Positions 1-9,442 of a DNA stretch of 64,000 nt are shown piece by piece. This DNA is from Escherichia coli. Lineage in GTDB: Bacteria > Pseudomonadota > Gammaproteobacteria > Enterobacterales > Enterobacteriaceae. Below the pieces are notes generated by a model that was given only the letters and a program-made list of their open reading frames with translations, did not search any database and was not told the origin of the DNA. Position 1 is the stretch's first letter, and each line of letters opens with the position of its first letter. The stretch lies in the NCBI RefSeq assembly GCF_024223415.1, contig NZ_CP100502.1. One strand, given 5' to 3'. The position numbers and the translations under genes were made by a program.

Positions 1-8
1 GCAAGGCG

Positions 9-314
9 TTGTCGGGTGAGCGAATGGCAGCCCGTGACAGAAATGCCGATCTGACCTGGATTCGCCAGCAACTGGTCGATGCCGCCTGGTTTGTCCGTGC
101 CACACTGGAAGCGCATGGGATGGGCGTCGGAAATGAGAGTCCCTCTGCTCCGCCGGAGACAATGCCGGACATACAGACACGGGAACTGGTTATGTTGATC
201 AAGCGACTGGCATCATCGCTGAAAGCGGTGAAACCCGACAGTAGCGTGGTGCGTGAAGCGCAGGACTGGCTGTGCGACAGAAAACTTGTGGATATCACAG
301 ATATTCTCCGGTGA
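9..314 (+). CDS. Hypothetical leading-region protein, probably the 3' part of a gene that starts upstream of the window (TTG at 9 unlikely to be the true start)
   Basis: ORF track 101 aa ending at 314; no recognisable motif; same strand as ardA. Confidence 0.3.
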   Translation: MSGERMAARDRNADLTWIRQQLVDAAWFVRATLEAHGMGVGNESPSAPPETMPDIQTRELVMLIKRLASSLKAVKPDSSVVREAQDWLCDRKLVDITDILR

Positions 315-776
315 ACCAGACATGTATATTTTACGCAGGGACACGCCGATCATGATCGTTTCATATCAGGGGTGGTCTGGAGGTCATGCGGCGTGTCCTC
401 TGCACTCGCCGGAATAAGGAAGTCGCCGGCGGCTCCGCTTTTACCCGGCCATGCGGGGCATGGCCTTGTGGGTTTTCAGCTCTGTGGCCTCAGCGTCGTG
501 TGCGGGCTGTGCCGTGCCTCCATCTTAGCCGGGCTGGCAGGGATGCAAGGGTACGCTTCGCCGCTGCGGTCACCCGGTCCCTCCTTCCCGTCTGCCGTGA
601 TTTTCCGGTCGTTCACCCGCTCAGATTTCGCGGTCTCACCCTCCAACTCCCGCCAGCCGTGTGCGTCAGGCTGCGGCTTCCCTTGCGCCCTGTGCATCCC
701 CGCCTTATCGCCCGGCTTTTATGGAGGCACGGCACCGCCCGGTGTCGCAGAACATGTGACTATGGAGGATTCGGGA

Positions 777-1277
777 ATGTCTGTTGTTGCACCTGCTGTA
801 TACGTTGGAACCTGGCACAAATACAACTGTGGAAGCATCGCTGGCCGCTGGTTTGACCTGGCCACGTTTGATGATGAACGCGACTTTTTCGCCGCCTGCC
901 GCTCTCTTCACCAGGATGAAGCCGATCCTGAACTGATGTTTCAGGATTATGAGGGATTCCCGGGGAATATGGCCTCAGAATGCCATATCAACTGGGCCTA
1001 TGTTGAAGGCTTCCGCCAGGCGCGGGATGAAGGCTGCGAAGAGGCTTATCGTCTCTGGGTGGATGATACCGGTGAGACGGATTTTGACACCTTCCGCGAT
1101 GCCTGGTGGGGCGAGGCTGACAGTGAGGAGGCTTTTGCGGTTGAGTTCGCCAGTGATACCGGCCTGCTGGCTGACGTGCCGGAGACGGTGGCGCTCTATT
1201 TTGACTATGAGGCGTATGCGCGGGATTTATTCCTGGACTCCTTCACCTTTATTGACGGTCATGTGTTCCGTCGGTGA
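777..1277 (+). CDS. ardA: ArdA antirestriction protein (DNA-mimic inhibitor of type I restriction-modification), 166 aa
   Basis: Internal Met of ORF 372..1277; strongly acidic protein beginning [28 protein letters not shown], matching ArdA of IncI1 plasmids as I recall it; the 372-776 extension is GC-rich leader. Confidence 0.85.
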
Positions 1278-1624
1278 TTTACTCCCCCGCTCCGGCGGGG
1301 GTATGGCCTGCCAGGCCGCCGGAAAACCCTGGCAGGCTTACGCCTGCCTGAAATGCAGGAGGGCCGCGCCTGCGGCGCTGCCCTTCCTGCCCGTCATGGT
1401 GTGAGGCATTTTTCTGTTATGTCGTTTCTGTTGTTCTGATTTCCGGAGGCGGGGACACCTTCGGCTCCCGGCTGCCTGGCGGCATCCGGTCGTCAGGCCC
1501 GACTCCGACAGGCAGCTGCTGGCGCACCCGCCAGTCTCCGCCGAACCCGCTGGCGCGGTTTCGGGCTGCCGCTACGGTCCGATGTCTGAAAAACCAGGCT
1601 TGCAGCGACCGTTCCGGTCGCGCC

Positions 1625-1960
1625 GCCCCTGTCGCGCCGGAAACGGCGCTCCCTGCACACCTTACGGTGTGTAAGGCAACTGCGCCTGATGGCGCAGTCA
1701 ACCCTTCCGCCGCCACCCCTGCGGCCTGTTTCCCGCTGTGGACTTTCCGGGGGCTGGAGTAACCACATCCCGTTTCAGCAGTCCAGGGGAAGATATACCG
1801 TCCACAAAATTTTTAGCCATAAACCCGGCAAAAAATTTTGCGTCCGCCCCCGGACAGCTGCCCCGTGACGTGGTGACGGACGCCCCATCGGAAAGGTCCA
1901 CTGCGGGGAGAAACCCCGAAGAAGTGGACGGCAGAAGGGGCTTTCGCCCCTCCGGGGAGC
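1625..1960 (+). promoter_or_regulatory. Frpo/ssi-like repeat copy A (candidate single-stranded-DNA promoter), ending just before the SD/ATG of the 2006 gene
   Basis: ~330-bp element repeated at 4520-4855 with long identical blocks (e.g. ggcgctccctgcacaccttacggtgtgtaaggc at 1644-1676); position in leading region upstream of a gene reading toward oriT. Confidence 0.5.
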
Positions 1961-2005
1961 AACCGGTCGGCCCGGCGACCTGATTCAGCAGAAGGAGATG
2001 TTTTC

Positions 2006-2440
2006 ATGACAGTCAGCAGCACGATTTCCGTTTTTTGCCGCGACGGGGTGTTCCGTACCGTTTACTGCCACCTGCACGGGGAGCCGACCTGGAACGGTCG
2101 CATCCTGCATACTCACTATGCCACCGGTCAGCAGGCCGAAGCCCTGGTTGAACACGGTGATATCCGTTGCCTCGGTCCCCGTTGTGACAAACCCGCCGGG
2201 CATACGCTTCAGAACCCGGTGGACGGTGTGACGGCTTATTACGGACGTGACAGTGGTTTCCGGATGGACAGTGAGGCGCGTGAGTACCGTTCTTTCAGGG
2301 AGGCTATTGCCACTGAAAGCACTGAAGAGGTGCGCTTCCATTATGTGTTCATCGACGGCTACTGGAAGGTGATGTACCGCACGCCGGAAGGCTGGAAGAT
2401 GAAAGCGCTCGCGCTGGCACTGCGTCGCTGTCCGAAATGA
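2006..2440 (+). CDS. Hypothetical leading-region protein, 144 aa
   Basis: ORF track; SD aggag upstream of ATG; immediately downstream of Frpo-like copy A; followed by hairpin 2447-2467. Confidence 0.55.
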   Translation: MTVSSTISVFCRDGVFRTVYCHLHGEPTWNGRILHTHYATGQQAEALVEHGDIRCLGPRCDKPAGHTLQNPVDGVTAYYGRDSGFRMDSEAREYRSFREAIATESTEEVRFHYVFIDGYWKVMYRTPEGWKMKALALALRRCPK

Positions 2441-2446
2441 AAAAAA

Positions 2447-2467
2447 GGCAGGGCGATAAACCCTGCC
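2447..2467 (+). terminator. Hairpin (ggcaggg-N7-ccctgcc) after the 2006..2440 gene
   Basis: 7-bp GC-rich stem followed by a T/C-rich tract. Confidence 0.4.
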
Positions 2468-2531
2468 TCTCTCCGCCGTTACTTCCCCGCCAGGAAGAGC
2501 GGCAGTCATCAACAACATAAGGAGTAATATT

Positions 2532-2798
2532 GTGAGACCATCAATTATCTTCGCAACCGCCGAGTATGTAAAGCGTCTGCGTGAAGAGTGCCTGCGGGAG
2601 AATAAACCCCTGCACCGCCATACCCGCTTCAGACGTCAGGAGCTGGCACAGGATGAGATTAACCCGGACGTCCTGGCGATGAGCGGCCATATCGCCAGAC
2701 GCTGCAGTGAGCAGAAGCGGGTGCGTATCCCCGCTATGAAAGTCAGCGAATGGGGCCACCTGCTCCGCGCGCTTGAAATTGAGCGGGTCTGCCACTGA
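2532..2798 (+). CDS. Hypothetical small basic protein, 88 aa (GTG start)
   Basis: ORF track; same strand and operon position as neighbours; no recognisable motif. Confidence 0.4.
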   Translation: MRPSIIFATAEYVKRLREECLRENKPLHRHTRFRRQELAQDEINPDVLAMSGHIARRCSEQKRVRIPAMKVSEWGHLLRALEIERVCH

Positions 2799-2862
2799 TT
2801 AACCCTTGCCGTCTGCCTGTGCAGGCGGCAGGATACGTTCAGACATCTCACCAGGAGGAACC

Positions 2863-3804
2863 GTGAGTAAGAAGAAAAACACCACAACGCCCACGCCGCA
2901 TGATGCCGCGTTCCGGTCGTTCCTGGCGAATCCCGACGTCGCCAGAGATTTTCTGGAACTGCATCTTCCTGCGGAGTACCGGCAGTTGTGCGACCTGTCC
3001 ACGCTGAAGCTGGAACCCGCCACCTTTGTTGAGCCGGACCTGCATCAGTACGCCAGCGATATCCTCTGGAGCGTGAAAACCACCGGGGGTGAAGATGGTT
3101 ATGTTTATACGCTCATCGAGCACCAGAGCACCGAAAATCTGTACATGCCTTTTCGCATGTTACGCTACAGTGTGGCGGCGATGCAGAGACATCTGGAGCA
3201 GCACAAAACGTTGCCACTGGTCATTCCGGTGCTGTTCTATCACGGTGAGCGCAGCCCGTACCCGTACAGCATGAACTGGCTGGACTGTTTTGAGAATCCG
3301 GCGCTTGCGGCTAAAATATACACAAAGCCGTTTCCGCTGGTTGATATCACTGTCGTTGATGACAATGAAATCATGAACCATCGCCGGATGGCCGCACTGA
3401 CGCTGCTGATGAAGCATATCCGTCAGCGGGATATGCTGATGTGTCTGGACAACCTGGTCAGAGCACTGCAGGACATCCAGGATGAAGAGCAGATTACAGT
3501 TCTTTTCAACTATCTGCTTAATGGCAGCGAACATGTAACGGTTGAATTTTTGCAGACGCTGGCGCAGCGACTGCCGCAGCACGAGGACAGCATTATGACA
3601 CTGGCAGAACGTCTTAAGCAGGAAGGTATCCAGCAAGGTATCCAGCAGGGTATCCAGCAGGGTATCCAGCAGGGAGTTCAGCAGGGGGCGCTTCAAAAAG
3701 CACGGGAAATCGCCCGGGAGCTCCGGAACGCGGGAATGCCGGCAGCACAAATCTGTCAGCTGACCGGACTTTCTGAAGCTGAACTGAAGAACATCACTCA
3801 CTGA
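2863..3804 (+). CDS. Rpn-family (YhgA-like, PD-(D/E)XK) recombination-promoting nuclease, 313 aa, GTG start
   Basis: N-terminus VSKKKNTTTPTPHDAAFRSFLANPDVARDFLELHLP is typical of E. coli RpnA-E/YhgA-like proteins; SD aggagg at 2853-2858; C-terminal tail with GIQQ repeats; ORF-table start at 2806 is a TTG extension. Confidence 0.8.
   Translation: MSKKKNTTTPTPHDAAFRSFLANPDVARDFLELHLPAEYRQLCDLSTLKLEPATFVEPDLHQYASDILWSVKTTGGEDGYVYTLIEHQSTENLYMPFRMLRYSVAAMQRHLEQHKTLPLVIPVLFYHGERSPYPYSMNWLDCFENPALAAKIYTKPFPLVDITVVDDNEIMNHRRMAALTLLMKHIRQRDMLMCLDNLVRALQDIQDEEQITVLFNYLLNGSEHVTVEFLQTLAQRLPQHEDSIMTLAERLKQEGIQQGIQQGIQQGIQQGVQQGALQKAREIARELRNAGMPAAQICQLTGLSEAELKNITH
3625..3684 (+). repeat. Five tandem 12-bp units (ggtatccagcaR) encoding (GIQQ)n inside the Rpn C-terminal tail
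   Basis: Direct reading: ggtatccagcaa ggtatccagcag ggtatccagcag ggtatccagcag ggagttcagcag. Confidence 0.9.
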
Positions 3805-3812
3805 TGAGAGCC

Positions 3813-3841
3813 AAAAGGCCCGGCAAAATGCCGGGCCTTTT
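3813..3841 (+). terminator. Rho-independent terminator after the Rpn gene
   Basis: Stem ggcccggc / gccgggcc with loop aaaat, followed by tttt. Confidence 0.75.
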
Positions 3842-3865
3842 GCCAGCAGGAGCAGAGAAAACAGT

Positions 3866-4036
3866 ATGACGATTGCAGAACGTCTTATACAGAAAGGTTT
3901 TGAAAAAGGTGCTCTTGAAGTGGCGCGGGAAATAGCCTGCCGGCTTCGGGATATGGGCTGGACGCCGGAACGGATTCAGGAGGCCACGGGACTTTCCGGT
4001 GAAGAACTGAAAAAACTGTTTCCTGATGAGCAGTAG
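3866..4036 (+). CDS. Small protein (56 aa) paralogous to the C-terminal tail of the upstream Rpn protein (RpnS-like)
   Basis: Not in ORF track (<60 aa). ATG 3866, TAG 4034-4036; MTIAERLIQKGFEKGALEVAREIACRLRDMGW... aligns with the Rpn tail MTLAERLKQEG...ALQKAREIARELRNAGM...; hairpin follows at 4037-4053. Confidence 0.5.
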   Translation: MTIAERLIQKGFEKGALEVAREIACRLRDMGWTPERIQEATGLSGEELKKLFPDEQ

Positions 4037-4066
4037 CCTGGCATTCTGCCAGGCTGTGAACCACGC

Positions 4067-4318
4067 TCACACATCCTCTGCCGTTTCCCCCAGTTCATTT
4101 TCCAGACGCCTGATGATATCTGCCTTGCGCATCCCCTGCATGTGAGGCAGCAGGTCACGGACTGAAAGTGCCTGGGTGGTCCTCCAGACGGTGACATCCA
4201 CCTGTTCCGCATTTTCCCAGGCGTGCCATGTTCTCTGTGTCACGCCAAATTCTCTGGCCGCTTTTTCGCGTGACCAGAGCATGCTTTTTCGCCAGATTCG
4301 CAGTTCCCAGCCGGTCAT
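4067..4318 (-). CDS. Small helix-turn-helix (XRE/Cro-like) DNA-binding protein, 83 aa
   Basis: ORF track; HTH-like segment WSREKAAREFGVTQRTWHAWE; operator-like palindromes immediately upstream of its start. Confidence 0.55.
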   Translation of the reverse strand: MTGWELRIWRKSMLWSREKAAREFGVTQRTWHAWENAEQVDVTVWRTTQALSVRDLLPHMQGMRKADIIRRLENELGETAEDV

Positions 4319-4331
4319 AAAACACCTTTGA

Positions 4332-4420
4332 AAAAGTGAAAAAACTTCACTTTATTTTATCACCATAACCACCAAATCAGCGCGAAAAATAAGTGTGAAA
4401 AAGTGAAGGAATTTCACTTT
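4332..4420. promoter_or_regulatory. Promoter/operator region with two inverted repeats AAGTGAA-N-TTCACTT
   Basis: aaagtgaaaaaacttcacttt (4332-4352) and aagtgaaggaatttcacttt (4401-4420) directly upstream of the HTH gene. Confidence 0.45.
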
Positions 4421-4519
4421 TTTTGATTGTAGGTGTCGTGCTGTTTTCTCTGTTTTCACCTGTGCGGGAGTGGTGTGCCAGTGACCACCACATGCCATTG
4501 TTGCGCCGTCGTTTTTCTT

Positions 4520-4855
4520 CAGTCGCGCCGGATGCGGCGCTCCCTGCACACCTTACGGTGTGTAAGGCCACTGCGCCTGATGGCGCAGCTGTCTCTGCCT
4601 GTCTGCCGCCGCACTGCGGCCTGTTCTCCGCAGATGGACTTTCCGGGGGTACATACACGACCACATCCCGTTTCAGTCGTCCAGGGGAGAGATGTACCAG
4701 CCACAAAACTTTTTGCCGCAGGCGTCAAAAACTTTTGCGTCTGCCCCCGGACAACTGCCCCGTGACGTGGTGAGCGTCCCCCGTCGGAAAGGTCCACTGC
4801 GGGGAAATCCCCGAAGACCCGGACGGCAGAAGGAGCTTCGCTCCTCCGGGAAATG
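4520..4855 (+). promoter_or_regulatory. Frpo/ssi-like repeat copy B (candidate single-stranded-DNA promoter), ending just before the SD/ATG of the 4898 gene
   Basis: Paralog of 1625-1960; shares blocks ggcgctccctgcacaccttacggtgtgtaaggc and tggactttccggggg...ccccgtgacgtggtga...ggaaaggtccactgcgggga. Confidence 0.5.
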
Positions 4856-4897
4856 ACCTGGCTGACCCGGCAGTCGTGACGATGAGGAGACAATGTG

Positions 4898-5746
4898 ATG
4901 AATCAGACTTTACCCACTGCTGACCTGAATACTGCCGGCACGACAGATGTTATTCCGTCTGTGGCCATCGACCGCATCATCGCGCAGCGTAACGAAGGTA
5001 TTGCACTGTTCATGCAGGCGATGGAATGCCTGGCGACAGCGCGCAGGATTCTGCTTGATGCGTCAGGTGATATTTTTCTTTACGGTTTTGAAGACTGCGT
5101 GACCGACTCCGTTCGGTGCATGGATAAACCGGAAGAAGCGAAAAGGAATATCACCCGTCTTGCCGACCGGAAAATCTGGGACCGCCTGATGACGGATACG
5201 GGGATGTACACCTTCATGAGTTCATGTCAGCGTGATGAGTGGAACAGCCAGCTGATGAGCGACACCTGTCCTGAAATCACCCTGGACAATGTACTGGCAA
5301 CTTTTCGCCATCTGAATGCCAGTAAGATGCAGACATTTGAACAGGGACTGATTGATGTCTACCGGAAATTGTCATGGGATTACAGAACCAATAATCCCTG
5401 CCGTCTGGGCAAGAGAATCATTATTGAAAACCTGCTGTACCGCTGGAGTAACGGGCGTGTTACGCTGGACTGCAGCGGACGGGAGGCACTGGATGACCTG
5501 GTACGTCCGTTTTATCTGCTGGAGGGGCGCAACGTTCCTGACTTCCGGAGCAGCATCGGGGCGCAGTACGGTGAATTTATCGGGAACGGCGACAATGTCG
5601 GTAAGCTGTTAGAAGGGGAATATTTTACGGTGCGTGGCTACCAGAAAGGGACCGTACACATTGTCTTTAAGCGTCCTGACCTTGTTGAAAAACTGAATGA
5701 TATTATTGCACGGCATTATCCTGGTTCATTGCCGCCACGAGTCTGA
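4898..5746 (+). CDS. Hypothetical leading-region protein, 282 aa
   Basis: ORF track (4895 is GTG; ATG at 4898 has SD gaggag 8 nt upstream); terminator follows. Confidence 0.6.
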   Translation: MNQTLPTADLNTAGTTDVIPSVAIDRIIAQRNEGIALFMQAMECLATARRILLDASGDIFLYGFEDCVTDSVRCMDKPEEAKRNITRLADRKIWDRLMTDTGMYTFMSSCQRDEWNSQLMSDTCPEITLDNVLATFRHLNASKMQTFEQGLIDVYRKLSWDYRTNNPCRLGKRIIIENLLYRWSNGRVTLDCSGREALDDLVRPFYLLEGRNVPDFRSSIGAQYGEFIGNGDNVGKLLEGEYFTVRGYQKGTVHIVFKRPDLVEKLNDIIARHYPGSLPPRV

Positions 5747-5756
5747 TTAAACAGAA

Positions 5757-5787
5757 AAGCCCTGGTATTTATGCCGGGGCTTTTTTT
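5757..5787 (+). terminator. Rho-independent terminator
   Basis: Stem gccctgg / ccggggc followed by ttttttt. Confidence 0.75.
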
Positions 5788-5830
5788 CTGTAATCATCAT
5801 AATATCAGAACATGATGTGACATTGTCACA

Positions 5831-6172
5831 TCAATTGTTGTTCATATCGATGCCATCTTTCCTGGCTGAATCTGTCTTTTTAGATGCTGTTTTAGAGGAA
5901 GAACGGCGGGATGGCTTTTTCGATTCTGCTTCCCGAATAATGTCACGAAGTGCCTTCTCTCCTACTTCATACCCTGCATTTTTGAGCGTATCACGAACAT
6001 CTGCCAGTGTATAACCCTTTGTCCTTACCAGAACAATAATGTCATCACGAATGGCATCAAGAAAATCACGCAATGTTTTCCGTTGAGCGGTGAGATCTGG
6101 CAATTCCGATAAAGCAGCTTTTGCCAGCTGGATGTCATCATCTGAGTAAAATTTTTTAGAAGCCATTGGCAC
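5831..6172 (-). CDS. Hypothetical protein with Lys/Ser-rich basic C-terminal tail, 113 aa, adjacent to oriT and divergent from nikA
   Basis: ORF track; basic tail suggests nucleic-acid binding; function not recognisable. Confidence 0.45.
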   Translation of the reverse strand: MPMASKKFYSDDDIQLAKAALSELPDLTAQRKTLRDFLDAIRDDIIVLVRTKGYTLADVRDTLKNAGYEVGEKALRDIIREAESKKPSRRSSSKTASKKTDSARKDGIDMNNN

Positions 6173-6199
6173 TTTCTCTCCGTTTCATGTTGAAGTCTG

Positions 6200-6360
6200 A
6201 TTTTATCATCAAAAACTGACTCCTGGCAGGGCTGCGCCCTGCCTCTGCCGTCTGCATAAGACTATGATGCACAAAAATAACAGGCTATAATGGCCTGAAA
6301 AACGGGACAGGATGTGCAATTGTAATACCGTCACACGCGACGCTATTACAATTGCCATCT
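6200..6360. other. oriT region (origin of transfer); contains a perfect 12-bp inverted repeat gcaattgtaata (6316-6327) / tattacaattgc (6344-6355)
   Basis: Non-coding stretch immediately upstream of nikA-nikB; inverted repeat read directly; nick site not determinable by eye. Confidence 0.6.
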
Positions 6361-6399
6361 GGTCAGGGCTTCGCCCCGACACCCCGTAAGGAGCCTGAA

Positions 6400-6732
6400 G
6401 TGAGTGATAGTGCGGTAAGAAAGAAAAGTGAGGTACGGCAAAAGACAGTTGTCAGGACACTCAGATTCTCTCCTGTTGAGGATGAAACCATCAGGAAAAA
6501 AGCTGAAGATTCCGGACTTACTGTATCTGCTTACATCCGAAATGCAGCACTGAATAAGCGAATTAACTCCCGTACAGATGATGCTTTTCTGAAGGAGTTA
6601 ATGAGACTGGGAAGGATGCAGAAGCATCTGTTTGTTCAGGGAAAAAGAACCGGTGACAAGGAATACGCAGAAGTGCTTGTTGCCATAACCGAACTTACAA
6701 ATACATTGCGTAAACAGTTAATGGAAGGTTGA
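6400..6732 (+). CDS. nikA: NikA, relaxosome accessory protein (ribbon-helix-helix), 110 aa, GTG start
   Basis: SD aaggag at 6388-6393; 110 aa matches R64 NikA as I recall; directly precedes the relaxase gene. Confidence 0.8.
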   Translation: MSDSAVRKKSEVRQKTVVRTLRFSPVEDETIRKKAEDSGLTVSAYIRNAALNKRINSRTDDAFLKELMRLGRMQKHLFVQGKRTGDKEYAEVLVAITELTNTLRKQLMEG

Positions 6733-6742
6733 GGATTCTCCG

Positions 6743-9442
6743 GTGAATGCAGTCATTCCGAAAAAGAGAAGGGACGGCAAGTCTTCGTTCGAAGACCTGG
6801 TATCCTACGTCTCTGTCCGGGATGACATGACCGATGAGGAACTGGATTTATCTTCTTCTTCGCAGGCTGAACAACCGCACCGAAGCCGTTTCAGTCGCCT
6901 TGTTGATTATGCGACACGTCTTCGAAATGAGTCATTCGTGGCGCTGGTTGATGTCATGAAGGACGGCTGCGAATGGGTCAACTTTTATGGTGTCACCTGC
7001 TTTCATAACTGTACTTCTCTTGAAACTGCCGCTGCAGATATGGAGTACATTGCCCGGCAGGCACACTATGCAAAAGATGACACTGATCCTGTTTTTCACT
7101 ACATCCTTTCCTGGCAGTCACATGAAAGCCCGCGTCCGGAACAGATTTATGACAGTGTACGTCATACGCTGAAATCACTCGGCCTTGCCGACCATCAGTA
7201 TGTCTCTGCCGTGCATACTGATACAGATAATCTGCACGTCCATGTGGCTGTTAACCGGGTACACCCTGAAACGGGTTATCTGAACCGGTTATCCTGGAGT
7301 CAGGAAAAACTCAGTCGTGCCTGCCGTGAGCTTGAACTGAAGCATGGTTTTGCTCCGGATAACGGTTGCTGGGTCCATGCACCGGGAAATCGTATCGTTC
7401 GCAAAACCGCCGTTGAACGTGATCGCCAGAACGCGTGGACACGCGGGAAAAAACAAACTTTTCGCGAGTATGTCGCGCAGACAGCGGTCGCTGGTTTACG
7501 CAGTGAACCTGTAAATGACTGGTTATCCCTGCATCGTCGTCTTGCGGAAGATGGTCTGTACCTGTCTCAGATGGACGGAAAATTTCTGGTGATGGATGGC
7601 TGGGATCGCAACAGGGAAGGTGTACAGCTTGACTCGTTTGGTCCCTCCTGGTGTGCAGAAAAACTCATGAAAAAAATGGGTGACTACACGCCAGTACCAA
7701 AAGACATTTTCAGCCAGGTGGAAGCACCAGGACGCTATAATCCGGACTTCATTGCCGCTGATGTTCGCCCGGAAAAAATCGCTGAAACAGAAAGTCTGCA
7801 GCAGTATGCCTGTCGTCATCTTGGAGAACGTCTGCCGGAAATGGCACGGGAAGGACGGCTGGAAAACTGCCAGGCTATTCACCGCACACTGGCTGAAGCG
7901 GGATTATGGATGCGTGTTCAGCATGGTCACCTGGTTATCTGTGACGGTTATGATCATAACCAGACTCCCGTTCGTGCTGACAGCGTATGGTCGCTGCTGA
8001 CGCTCGACAATGTGAATCAACTCGATGGTGGCTGGCAGCCTGTACCAACAGATATTTTCCGCCAGGTTACGCCAACAGAACGCTTCCGTGGTCGTCGTAT
8101 GGAGAGCTGTCCTGCGACCGATAAAGAATGGCACCGTATGCGTACAGGCACGGGGCCGCAGGGGGCTATCAAACGCGAACTGTTTTCTGACAAAGAAAGT
8201 CTGTGGGGATACAGCATCAGCCATTGTAGCCCTCAGATTGAAGAAATGATCACACAGGGTGAGTTTACCTGGCAGCGTTGTCATGAGCTGTTTGCACAAC
8301 AGGGACTGATGCTACAGAAACAACATCACGGGCTTGTTGTCGTTGATGCCTTTAATCATGAGCAAACGCCGGTGAAGGCCAGCAGCATTCATCCTGATCT
8401 GACACTGGGGCGTGCAGAGCCACAGGCCGGACCTTTTGTGAGTGCCCCAGCAGATTTGTTTGACAGGGTGCAACCTGAAAGTCGCTATAACCCGGAGCTG
8501 GCTGTCAGTGACAGGTACGGGGTCAGCAGTAAACGTGACCCAATGCTGCGCCGGCAGCGACGTGAAGCCAGAGCTGAGGCCCGTGCTGACCTGCGTGCCC
8601 GCTATCTGGCATGGCGTGAACAATGGCGTAAACCAGATCTGCGTTATGGGGAACGTTGTCGGGAAATTCATCAGGCATGCCGTCTGCGGAAGTCACACAT
8701 TCGTGCGCAGTACGATGATCCGGCATTACGTAAGCTGCATTATCACATTGCAGAAGTTCAGCGAATGCAGGCATTGATCAGGCTGAAAGAAGACATCAGG
8801 GATGAGCGACAGAAACTTATTGCTGATGGGAAATGGTATCCACCCTCTTACCGTCAGTGGGTCGAAATTCAGGCTGCTCAGGGAGACAGGGCTGCTGTAT
8901 CGCAGCTGAGAGGCTGGGATTATCGCGATCGCCGTAAAGACAGGTCACGCACAACGACGACAGACCGCTGTGTCGTGCTTTGTGAACCGGGCGGAACGCC
9001 GGTATACGGTAATACCGGTGATCTCGAGGCCCGTCTGCAGAAGAACGGGAGTGTTCGTTTCCGTGACCGTCGGACGGGAGAGTTTGTCTGTACGGATTAT
9101 GGTGACAGGGTTGTTTTCCGTAATCACCATGACCGCAATGCGCTGGCAGATAAACTGGATTTGATTGCACCGGTATTATTCGGGCGTGATCCACGCATGG
9201 GTTTTGAACCAGAAGGAAACGACAAACAATTTAACCAGGTCTTTGCTGAAATGGTTGCCTGGCATAATGTGACAGGCCGTACCGGTCACGAAGACTACAG
9301 GATTACGCGACCGGACGTGGATCATCACCGTGAAGGAAGTGAACGCTACTACCGCGATTATATCGCGGCGAACAGCAACAATGACGCATCACTGCCTCCG
9401 CCGGAGCAGGATAAACGCTGGGAACCGCCTTCTCCAGGTTAA
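6743..9442 (+). CDS. nikB: NikB relaxase (MobP-type), 899 aa
   Basis: ORF track; N-terminal HxH motif region (HTDTDNLHVHVAVNRVHPETG); length equals R64 NikB (899 aa) as I recall. Confidence 0.85.
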   Translation: MNAVIPKKRRDGKSSFEDLVSYVSVRDDMTDEELDLSSSSQAEQPHRSRFSRLVDYATRLRNESFVALVDVMKDGCEWVNFYGVTCFHNCTSLETAAADMEYIARQAHYAKDDTDPVFHYILSWQSHESPRPEQIYDSVRHTLKSLGLADHQYVSAVHTDTDNLHVHVAVNRVHPETGYLNRLSWSQEKLSRACRELELKHGFAPDNGCWVHAPGNRIVRKTAVERDRQNAWTRGKKQTFREYVAQTAVAGLRSEPVNDWLSLHRRLAEDGLYLSQMDGKFLVMDGWDRNREGVQLDSFGPSWCAEKLMKKMGDYTPVPKDIFSQVEAPGRYNPDFIAADVRPEKIAETESLQQYACRHLGERLPEMAREGRLENCQAIHRTLAEAGLWMRVQHGHLVICDGYDHNQTPVRADSVWSLLTLDNVNQLDGGWQPVPTDIFRQVTPTERFRGRRMESCPATDKEWHRMRTGTGPQGAIKRELFSDKESLWGYSISHCSPQIEEMITQGEFTWQRCHELFAQQGLMLQKQHHGLVVVDAFNHEQTPVKASSIHPDLTLGRAEPQAGPFVSAPADLFDRVQPESRYNPELAVSDRYGVSSKRDPMLRRQRREARAEARADLRARYLAWREQWRKPDLRYGERCREIHQACRLRKSHIRAQYDDPALRKLHYHIAEVQRMQALIRLKEDIRDERQKLIADGKWYPPSYRQWVEIQAAQGDRAAVSQLRGWDYRDRRKDRSRTTTTDRCVVLCEPGGTPVYGNTGDLEARLQKNGSVRFRDRRTGEFVCTDYGDRVVFRNHHDRNALADKLDLIAPVLFGRDPRMGFEPEGNDKQFNQVFAEMVAWHNVTGRTGHEDYRITRPDVDHHREGSERYYRDYIAANSNNDASLPPPEQDKRWEPPSPG

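Follow-up and report, generated by a model that had tools for sequence, protein, structure and literature searches.

The window analysed here is a stretch of 64,000 nucleotides from Escherichia coli (contig NZ_CP100502.1, assembly GCF_024223415.1), in which positions 250-1300 are 100% identical to the IncI1 plasmid R64 (NC_005014.1 60899-61949) and, likewise, to many further IncI1 plasmids. The gene order in R64 runs from ssb through a parB-like gene, psiB, psiA and a hypothetical gene to ardA and, further on, nikA and nikB, all of them on the plus strand of the window. The open reading frame that ends with the stop codon at 312-314 is the hypothetical gene following psiA in the R64 annotation, and ardA itself occupies 777-1277 on the plus strand (PF07275, E = 2.4e-29; annotated as ArdA in R64). 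The 462 bp between them, region 315-776, contain the candidate promoter that would serve ardA.

An R64-type oriT core is found on the minus strand at 6307-6355, consisting of a 17-bp inverted repeat (6316-6332 and 6339-6355) followed by CACATCCTG/TCCCG. The repeat at 6316-6355 is presumably the oriT repeat of R64, and the minus-strand sequence adjoining it, ...CAATTGCACATCCTG/TCCCGTTTTTC, resembles an RP4-type nick region; the nick itself, placed as in R64 and RP4, would fall at about window position 6308/6307. The nick-region sequence lies on the minus strand, as does the oriT repeat, which makes this the transferred strand (T-strand) and hence the template for all the leading genes on the plus strand, ardA included. 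On the basis of this oriT identification, the T-strand enters the recipient 5'-first, running toward lower coordinates, with region 315-776 at a distance of about 5.6 kb from the nick. The region belongs to the leading region, with nikA/nikB downstream, its hairpin on the T-strand and ardA on the plus strand, as for the class 2 single-stranded DNA (ssDNA) promoters discussed below.

Composition and organization of the region upstream of ardA

The G+C content of 315-776 is 62.6%, compared with a window mean of 49.7% (s.d. 5.2%), and only 0.9% of equal-sized 462-nt windows reach this value. The minus strand of the region folds with -113.4 kcal/mol (z = -5.4, 0 of 100 shuffles), the plus strand with -104.4 kcal/mol, and the longest inverted repeat in window positions 1-8000 is located here, with arms of 32 nt at 503-534 and 710-741 that are 88% complementary. 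An earlier, sequence-only reading of this DNA had described the gap as GC-rich and structured and the open reading frames covering it as spurious, and both descriptions hold. The frames 372-1277, 386-856 and 476-697 (minus strand) gave no match in Pfam, and the open extension of the ardA frame, of 154 codons here and 140 in pESBL, has only 57 in two IncK-type relatives; the frames across 315-776 are not conserved, being broken or shortened in relatives, and the region is not protein-coding.

In an Rfam scan of window positions 1-8000, region 315-776 had no match at E <= 1. The sole hit of that scan is a weak match to Listeria rli61 on the minus strand at 3806-3868 (29.7 bits, against a gathering score of 50), which coincides in part with a perfect 14-nt inverted repeat (3812-3842) and probably reflects no more than a terminator after an Rpn-family gene. 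Near the C-terminus of that Rpn-family nuclease/transposase-like frame (2806-3804), five tandem 12-nt units at 3607-3686 code for Q-G-I-Q repeats. Further along, an AT-rich 23-nt inverted repeat (4331-4353 and 4400-4422, 87% complementary), which is also seen as a 42-nt direct repeat, adjoins a helix-turn-helix gene on the minus strand (4067-4318) and is a possible operator region.

Alignment with relatives shows that region 315-776 is composite, consisting of a unique spacer (315-415, plus strand) and a repeated module (416-770). The spacer belongs to the ardA locus only and is missing from the copy of the module found before klcA, the alignment of the two copies diverging upstream of 416. 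It contains an extended hairpin at 335-403 (RNA fold of 330-410, -40.3 kcal/mol, z = -5.6), immediately behind the end of the preceding frame; this hairpin is confined to the ardA locus and has neither a T-run nor an obvious role. The spacer is kept in pESBL and in the IncK relatives. In ColIb-P9, a comparison that the sequence-only reading had suggested, all DNA upstream of about window position 366, a point inside the 335-403 hairpin, has given way to an insertion sequence (IS) that carries a TnpB gene; the end of the IS lies about 50 nt upstream of the module, and the module downstream of it is intact.

The module, of about 355 bp and functional on the minus (transferred) strand, corresponds to the element named ssp2 or Frpo3 in F. 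It is made up of a small GC hairpin (447-465) with a T-rich tail, a large hairpin (503-741) and about 30 nt with the ribosome-binding site. The small hairpin, situated upstream of the large one, consists on the plus strand of GGCCATGC-GGG-GCATGGCC (447-465) followed by the T-rich tail TTGTGGGTTTT (466-476), and its RNA fold has -21.9 kcal/mol. On the mRNA strand, the whole stretch 447-476 looks like an intrinsic terminator, left uncalled by a consensus terminator scan because its T-tract is interrupted, and compensatory changes from AT/TA to CG/GC affect two of its stem pairs in the Klebsiella grimontii and Entomohabitans copies. This hairpin may shield the ssDNA promoter from transcription that arrives from upstream; the accessible text of the published accounts of ssDNA promoters contains no mention of it. 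At the other end of the module, the Shine-Dalgarno sequence GGAGGA (764-769, plus strand) stands 7 nt before the ATG of ardA and is also GGAGGA in the klcA copies. Most of the 462 bp is the promoter hairpin together with the terminator-like hairpin upstream of it.

A conserved hairpin on the transferred strand

The large hairpin is a stem-loop of 239 nt (503-741) formed by the transferred strand. Secondary-structure prediction for the minus strand, which the sequence-only reading had put forward as a check, gave a stable DNA fold for 497-745 (-74.3 kcal/mol, z = -6.9, 0 of 200 shuffles), about 11 kcal/mol better than the plus strand of the same stretch (only -63.0 kcal/mol, z = -5.6). The base of the hairpin contains 20 pairs (5 + 15, with one G.A mismatch between them) that are invariant across relatives, and above it follow, in order, a -10 bubble, a GCCGGGC stem of 7-8 bp, a bulged region and a -35 stem. 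This architecture is shared by all 20 distinct homologue hairpins, with energies from -69 to -80 kcal/mol, and in 20 of 20 the fold of the T-strand is more stable than that of the opposite strand, with a margin of 3.5 to 12.7 kcal/mol.

The conservation of the fold was evaluated by projecting the structure of the window copy onto an alignment of 23 sequences, comprising every recovered copy, all at least 81% identical. Standard pairs occupy 93.9% of the pair cells, compared with 34-43% when the partners are slid by 1-3 columns. Five pairs are changed on both sides, three of them in the spacer helix and two in the terminator-like hairpin, and the covariation score of 0.057 exceeds that of shuffles (0.039; 0 of 500 reach the observed value), a real but modest signal, given that the copies are closely related and that none of the 23 has a change in the 20-bp basal helix. 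RNAalifold on a MAFFT alignment was rejected, since it mis-paired the middle of the hairpin: in the IncK-type copies the bulge is on the other arm, and this defeats the MAFFT alignment. Folds of the individual sequences and the structure mapped from the window were used instead of a consensus; in the mapped alignment, the IncK rows score as unpaired in helix 2, yet these sequences pair when folded alone.

Candidate promoter boxes and transcription start

In the proposed arrangement, the template for ardA would be the 5' arm of the T-strand hairpin, with the 3' arm serving as the non-template strand. The 3' arm reads, from loop to base, CCCTTGCATCCCTGCCAGCCCGGCTAAGATGGAGGCACGG, and from its box geometry we infer a candidate -35-like element, TTGCAT (543-548, minus strand, read 548-543), and a candidate -10-like element, TAAGAT (522-527, minus strand, read 527-522). 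The former is in fully paired stem and is TTGCAA in the IncK-type copies; the latter is TACGAT in other types, so that TA[AC]GAT is found in 23 of 23 copies, and its three middle bases, AAG, lie opposite an AAA of the other arm, the two forming a 3x3 internal loop. The match to consensus is weak (3-4/6 to TTGACA for the -35-like element and 4/6 for the -10-like one, 7/12 overall). Between TTGCAT and TAAGAT, the spacer on the non-template arm is 15 nt long, and 20 nt in the IncK-type copies, so the proposed geometry is not uniform. In R64, four extra nucleotides bulge from the template arm within this spacer. A comparison of the spacer arms (528-542 and 698-716) shows that the bulge is always there and that the arm carrying it varies, the extra nucleotides being on the template arm in the R64/F type (15 vs 19 nt) and on the non-template arm in the IncK type (20 vs 15 nt). 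Alternative pairs of -10 and -35 elements on the 3' arm, for instance with GAAAAT higher in the stem, were checked by eye, and none had a usable -35. The predicted transcription start falls at 727-731 (about A729, plus strand), 7 nt downstream of the -10-like box, which would give ardA a 5' untranslated region (5' UTR) of probably only about 48 nt. With a promoter at the hairpin base, most of 315-776 is probably not transcribed with ardA, and the term "460-bp untranslated leader", used in the sequence-only reading, is thus misleading: the region is noncoding, as that reading had it, and is intergenic DNA rather than a leader RNA.

In duplex form, the plus strand at the hairpin base reads GTGCAT - 19 nt - TTTTAT (717-722), without an A at -11. 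Judged from the sequence, this would be a poor promoter, with the critical -11 A missing and the spacer over-long, and these poor duplex boxes offer a simple reason for activity only as a hairpin. The sequence-only reading had pointed to a conventional double-strand promoter as the finding that would speak against an ssDNA promoter, and a consensus scan of plus-strand positions 1-2100 detected no sigma-70 site, for which -35 and -10 hexamers 16-18 bp apart would be expected. A promoter of this kind, with or without a regulatory leader RNA, would make the hairpin irrelevant or would have it act at the RNA level, and the plus strand indeed folds well too (-63 kcal/mol), as any inverted repeat must. 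It is, nevertheless, the less stable strand in every variant, no RNA family was recognised in it by Rfam, and the mRNA would not contain the hairpin if transcription starts at the stem base; moreover, a study of the related plasmid pESBL reports that the leading genes are silent in established donors and induced, by up to about 500-fold, only in new transconjugants (PMC12672017). We consider a conventional promoter the least probable of the explanations weighed here.

Relatives and copies of the module

The closest experimentally studied relative is the DNA upstream of ardA in pESBL, which is 97.4% identical over 462 nt, the stem base and the 5' UTR being identical. The two have the same locus, gene and orientation, and in both plasmids the ardA and klcA copies are closely alike; the differences amount to 11 substitutions and a single 1-nt indel, most of them located in the distal stem or in the -35/-10 spacer. 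The module is 93.8-96.3% identical to the klcA copies, and the klcA/ardB-like anti-restriction gene of R64 is preceded by a copy with 96.3% identity (locus L001, 5219-5572). In F, NC_002483.1 56395-56747 is 94.9% identical over 355 nt, and the published ssp2 primers map just upstream. The F element, between yffB and yfgB, is the same hairpin with the TAAGAT bubble, also in the leading region and before an anti-restriction gene; unlike in the window plasmid, it is a single copy linked to a klcA/ardB-like gene, F being devoid of ardA, and its basal stem is fully paired, unlike that of the window copy with its one G.A mismatch.

The element is present, at an identity of at least 90%, in more than 5000 plasmid records, for the most part from Escherichia, Klebsiella, Salmonella and Shigella. 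IncI/IncK-type plasmids have two copies, before klcA and before ardA, and IncF plasmids have one, before the klcA-like gene. A scan of species-representative genomes with a two-arm pattern added ten further loci, among them copies of 81-89% identity in Entomohabitans, Enterobacter and Klebsiella grimontii, and in eight of the eight scan loci examined the element precedes a KlcA/ArdB-like frame of 141-142 aa. The linkage to klcA thus looks ancestral, and the ardA copy would have arisen by a later duplication. Copies of the module are also present on contigs labelled as Oscillospiraceae, Oscillibacter and Collinsella metagenome-assembled genomes and as Streptomyces morookaense (L011, L013, L014, L015 and L017); in these public assemblies, they are most likely plasmid DNA that was mis-binned or came in as a contaminant.

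Within one plasmid, the ardA and klcA copies have 4-13 differences (L001, L002, L003 and L010, with two copies each), and an R64-type and an IncK-type plasmid differ from each other by 36-48 positions at one and the same locus. This suggests that the two direct repeats, about 7 kb apart, may have been homogenised by recombination or gene conversion.

The distribution of the module bears on an older view of ardA expression, in which the gene lacks a promoter of its own and is the last one of a class 1 operon (ssi3/Frpo2-like) that starts before ssb, the gap being an intercistronic spacer or attenuator. The genes from ssb to ardA are all co-oriented, and a paper of 2023 still placed ArdA inside ssi-driven operons (PMC10104558). 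Against such an arrangement, the module precedes klcA in IncF plasmids that have no ardA, and a conserved terminator-like hairpin (447-476) stands upstream of the promoter hairpin. In ColIb-P9, where the zygotic induction of ardA was first reported, the IS lies between psiA and the module, and yet ardA is induced, which fits a promoter inside the module. Furthermore, a separate start before ardA was mapped by 5' RACE in the 97.4%-identical DNA of pESBL, according to that study (PMC12672017). Expression of ardA solely from the ssb operon is therefore very unlikely, and a promoter within the module is the reading that we follow.

Class 1 promoters are nevertheless present nearby. Two repeats of this class (Frpo/ssi), at about 1440-1990 and 4440-4890, share common blocks of 87-96% identity and precede the frames 2006-2440 and 4895-5746 (DUF4942); the T-strand of the first one (1560-2005) folds with -128.7 kcal/mol (z = -8.9). 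In class 1 elements, the transferred strand folds and rebuilds the -35 and -10 boxes, which are active only as ssDNA (Couturier et al. 2023, PMC9849209; Masai & Arai 1997; Bates et al. 1999; Nasim et al. 2004). The module and Frpo1/Frpo2 of F or ssi1-3 of ColIb-P9 have in common the principle of a long T-strand stem-loop, but not a detectable sequence similarity: blastn (word size 7, E < 1e-3) of 416-776 against the whole window returned only the query itself and its own arms, with nothing at 1440-1990 or 4440-4890. Membership of class 1 was rejected on this ground, in agreement with the statement of the sequence-only reading that the conserved blocks of the two Frpo-like copies are not shared.

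Relation to published ssDNA promoters

The element has already been described experimentally in 2025-2026. Wen et al. (Nucleic Acids Res 2025, PMC12672017) report RNA-seq of pESBL transconjugants after removal of the donors, with six strongly induced leading-region operons and a hairpin before each: ssi1-3 form class 1, the hairpins upstream of ardA and klcA form class 2, and that of M.EcoGIX forms class 3. In the same study, induction is seen at 15 min and lasts longer in a uvrD recipient, the highest transcription comes from class 1 promoters, and starts were mapped by 5' RACE for all six promoters, the one before ardA having "matched in silico predictions". The class 3 element, before an M.EcoGIX-like ssDNA methyltransferase gene, is likewise a leading-region hairpin promoter with a mapped start, and is described there as unlike all other hairpins; its counterpart is outside the window, upstream of a DNA methylase gene (L001 2990-3673). 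Start and induction of class 2 were measured in pESBL, and their extension to the R64 copy, known here from its sequence, would rest on the near identity of the two.

The homologue of F was identified independently as Frpo3 (bioRxiv 10.1101/2025.04.03.647016) and as ssp2 (bioRxiv 10.64898/2026.01.09.698686). In the latter study, the nascent complementary strand is held up where the ssp2 stem ends, deletion of ssp2 leads to faster conversion of downstream loci, and UvrD resolves the block; the delay approximately doubles PsiB production and helps against EcoKI. These observations raise the question of whether the hairpin is selected mainly as a structure, either as a roadblock to complementary-strand synthesis or as a priming signal, its promoter activity being secondary. 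The stall exactly at the stem end of an element 94.9% identical to ours argues for a structural role, as does the fact that EcoKI protection was not restored when ssp2 was replaced by another ssDNA promoter (bioRxiv 10.64898/2026.01.09.698686), and no part other than the 20-bp basal stem is invariant in the 23 copies. A roadblock is, however, compatible with a promoter, and the F study treats ssp2 as both; the TA[AC]GAT bubble and the junction between the Shine-Dalgarno sequence and the gene are likewise conserved, and a priming signal is at odds with ssp2 not being a preferred initiation point of conversion in F (bioRxiv 10.64898/2026.01.09.698686). That the structure alone would be the main object of selection seems to us highly improbable. 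The roadblock and its dependence on UvrD have been shown in F only, and the nearly identical basal stem of the window copy suggests by analogy that it may behave in the same way.

Discussion

In this study, we have described the region between the gene following psiA and ardA in an R64-type plasmid. Positions 416-770 are very probably the ardA-linked copy of the class 2 ssDNA promoter of IncI/IncF plasmids (ssp2, Frpo3). The sequence-only reading had guessed at a third, divergent single-strand promoter for the early expression of ardA. The T-strand hairpin and the 97.4% identity to pESBL support the promoter; the word "third" is true only within the window, as this plasmid type has six. The guess was right and, the window copy being nearly identical to an element already described, it was not new.

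The following sequence of events can be proposed. During conjugation, the minus strand would enter the recipient 5'-first from the oriT nick (around 6308/6307) and bring in the element after about 5.6 kb, and the stretch 503-741 would snap into the long hairpin before the complementary strand is made. The base of this hairpin would mimic a duplex sigma-70 promoter, with TTGCAT paired, TAAGAT pre-melted by the 3x3 mismatch and the 5' arm acting as template. Host RNA polymerase would start near 729 on the incoming ssDNA and leave the hairpin into ardA, so that ArdA would be available within minutes, ahead of any action of type I restriction enzymes on the duplex plasmid. Complementary-strand synthesis would then erase the hairpin, leaving the plus strand with the GTGCAT - 19 nt - TTTTAT arrangement, and expression would be switched off. 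By homology with ssp2 of F, the GC-rich 20-bp basal stem probably stalls this synthesis until UvrD unwinds it, and such a stall would keep the oriT-proximal genes single-stranded for longer.

A broader picture, which we advance tentatively as somewhat less than an even prospect, is that plasmids of the IncI complex carry two copies of a portable cassette composed of the terminator-like hairpin, the class 2 ssDNA promoter and the ribosome-binding site, the ardA copy being a secondary duplication of the klcA-linked one and recombination keeping the two alike, and that the ardA copy acts as a second roadblock resolved by UvrD. If this is true, complementary-strand synthesis that arrives from the distal side of the leading region would meet two gates, and ardA and the two oriT-proximal class 1 operons would remain single-stranded, and hence expressed, for the longest time.

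The importance of the element, found in more than 5000 sequenced plasmids, has already been recognised in the literature of 2025-2026. The present work adds its confirmation for R64/ColIb-P9-type DNA, with coordinates for the hairpin and the candidate boxes, and, as side observations, the linked terminator-like hairpin, the arm-switching bulge and the apparent homogenisation of both copies within a plasmid. ArdA is needed before the type I restriction enzymes of the host meet the new duplex plasmid, and a promoter that fires on the incoming single strand would therefore decide on the establishment of IncI/IncF resistance plasmids in new hosts.
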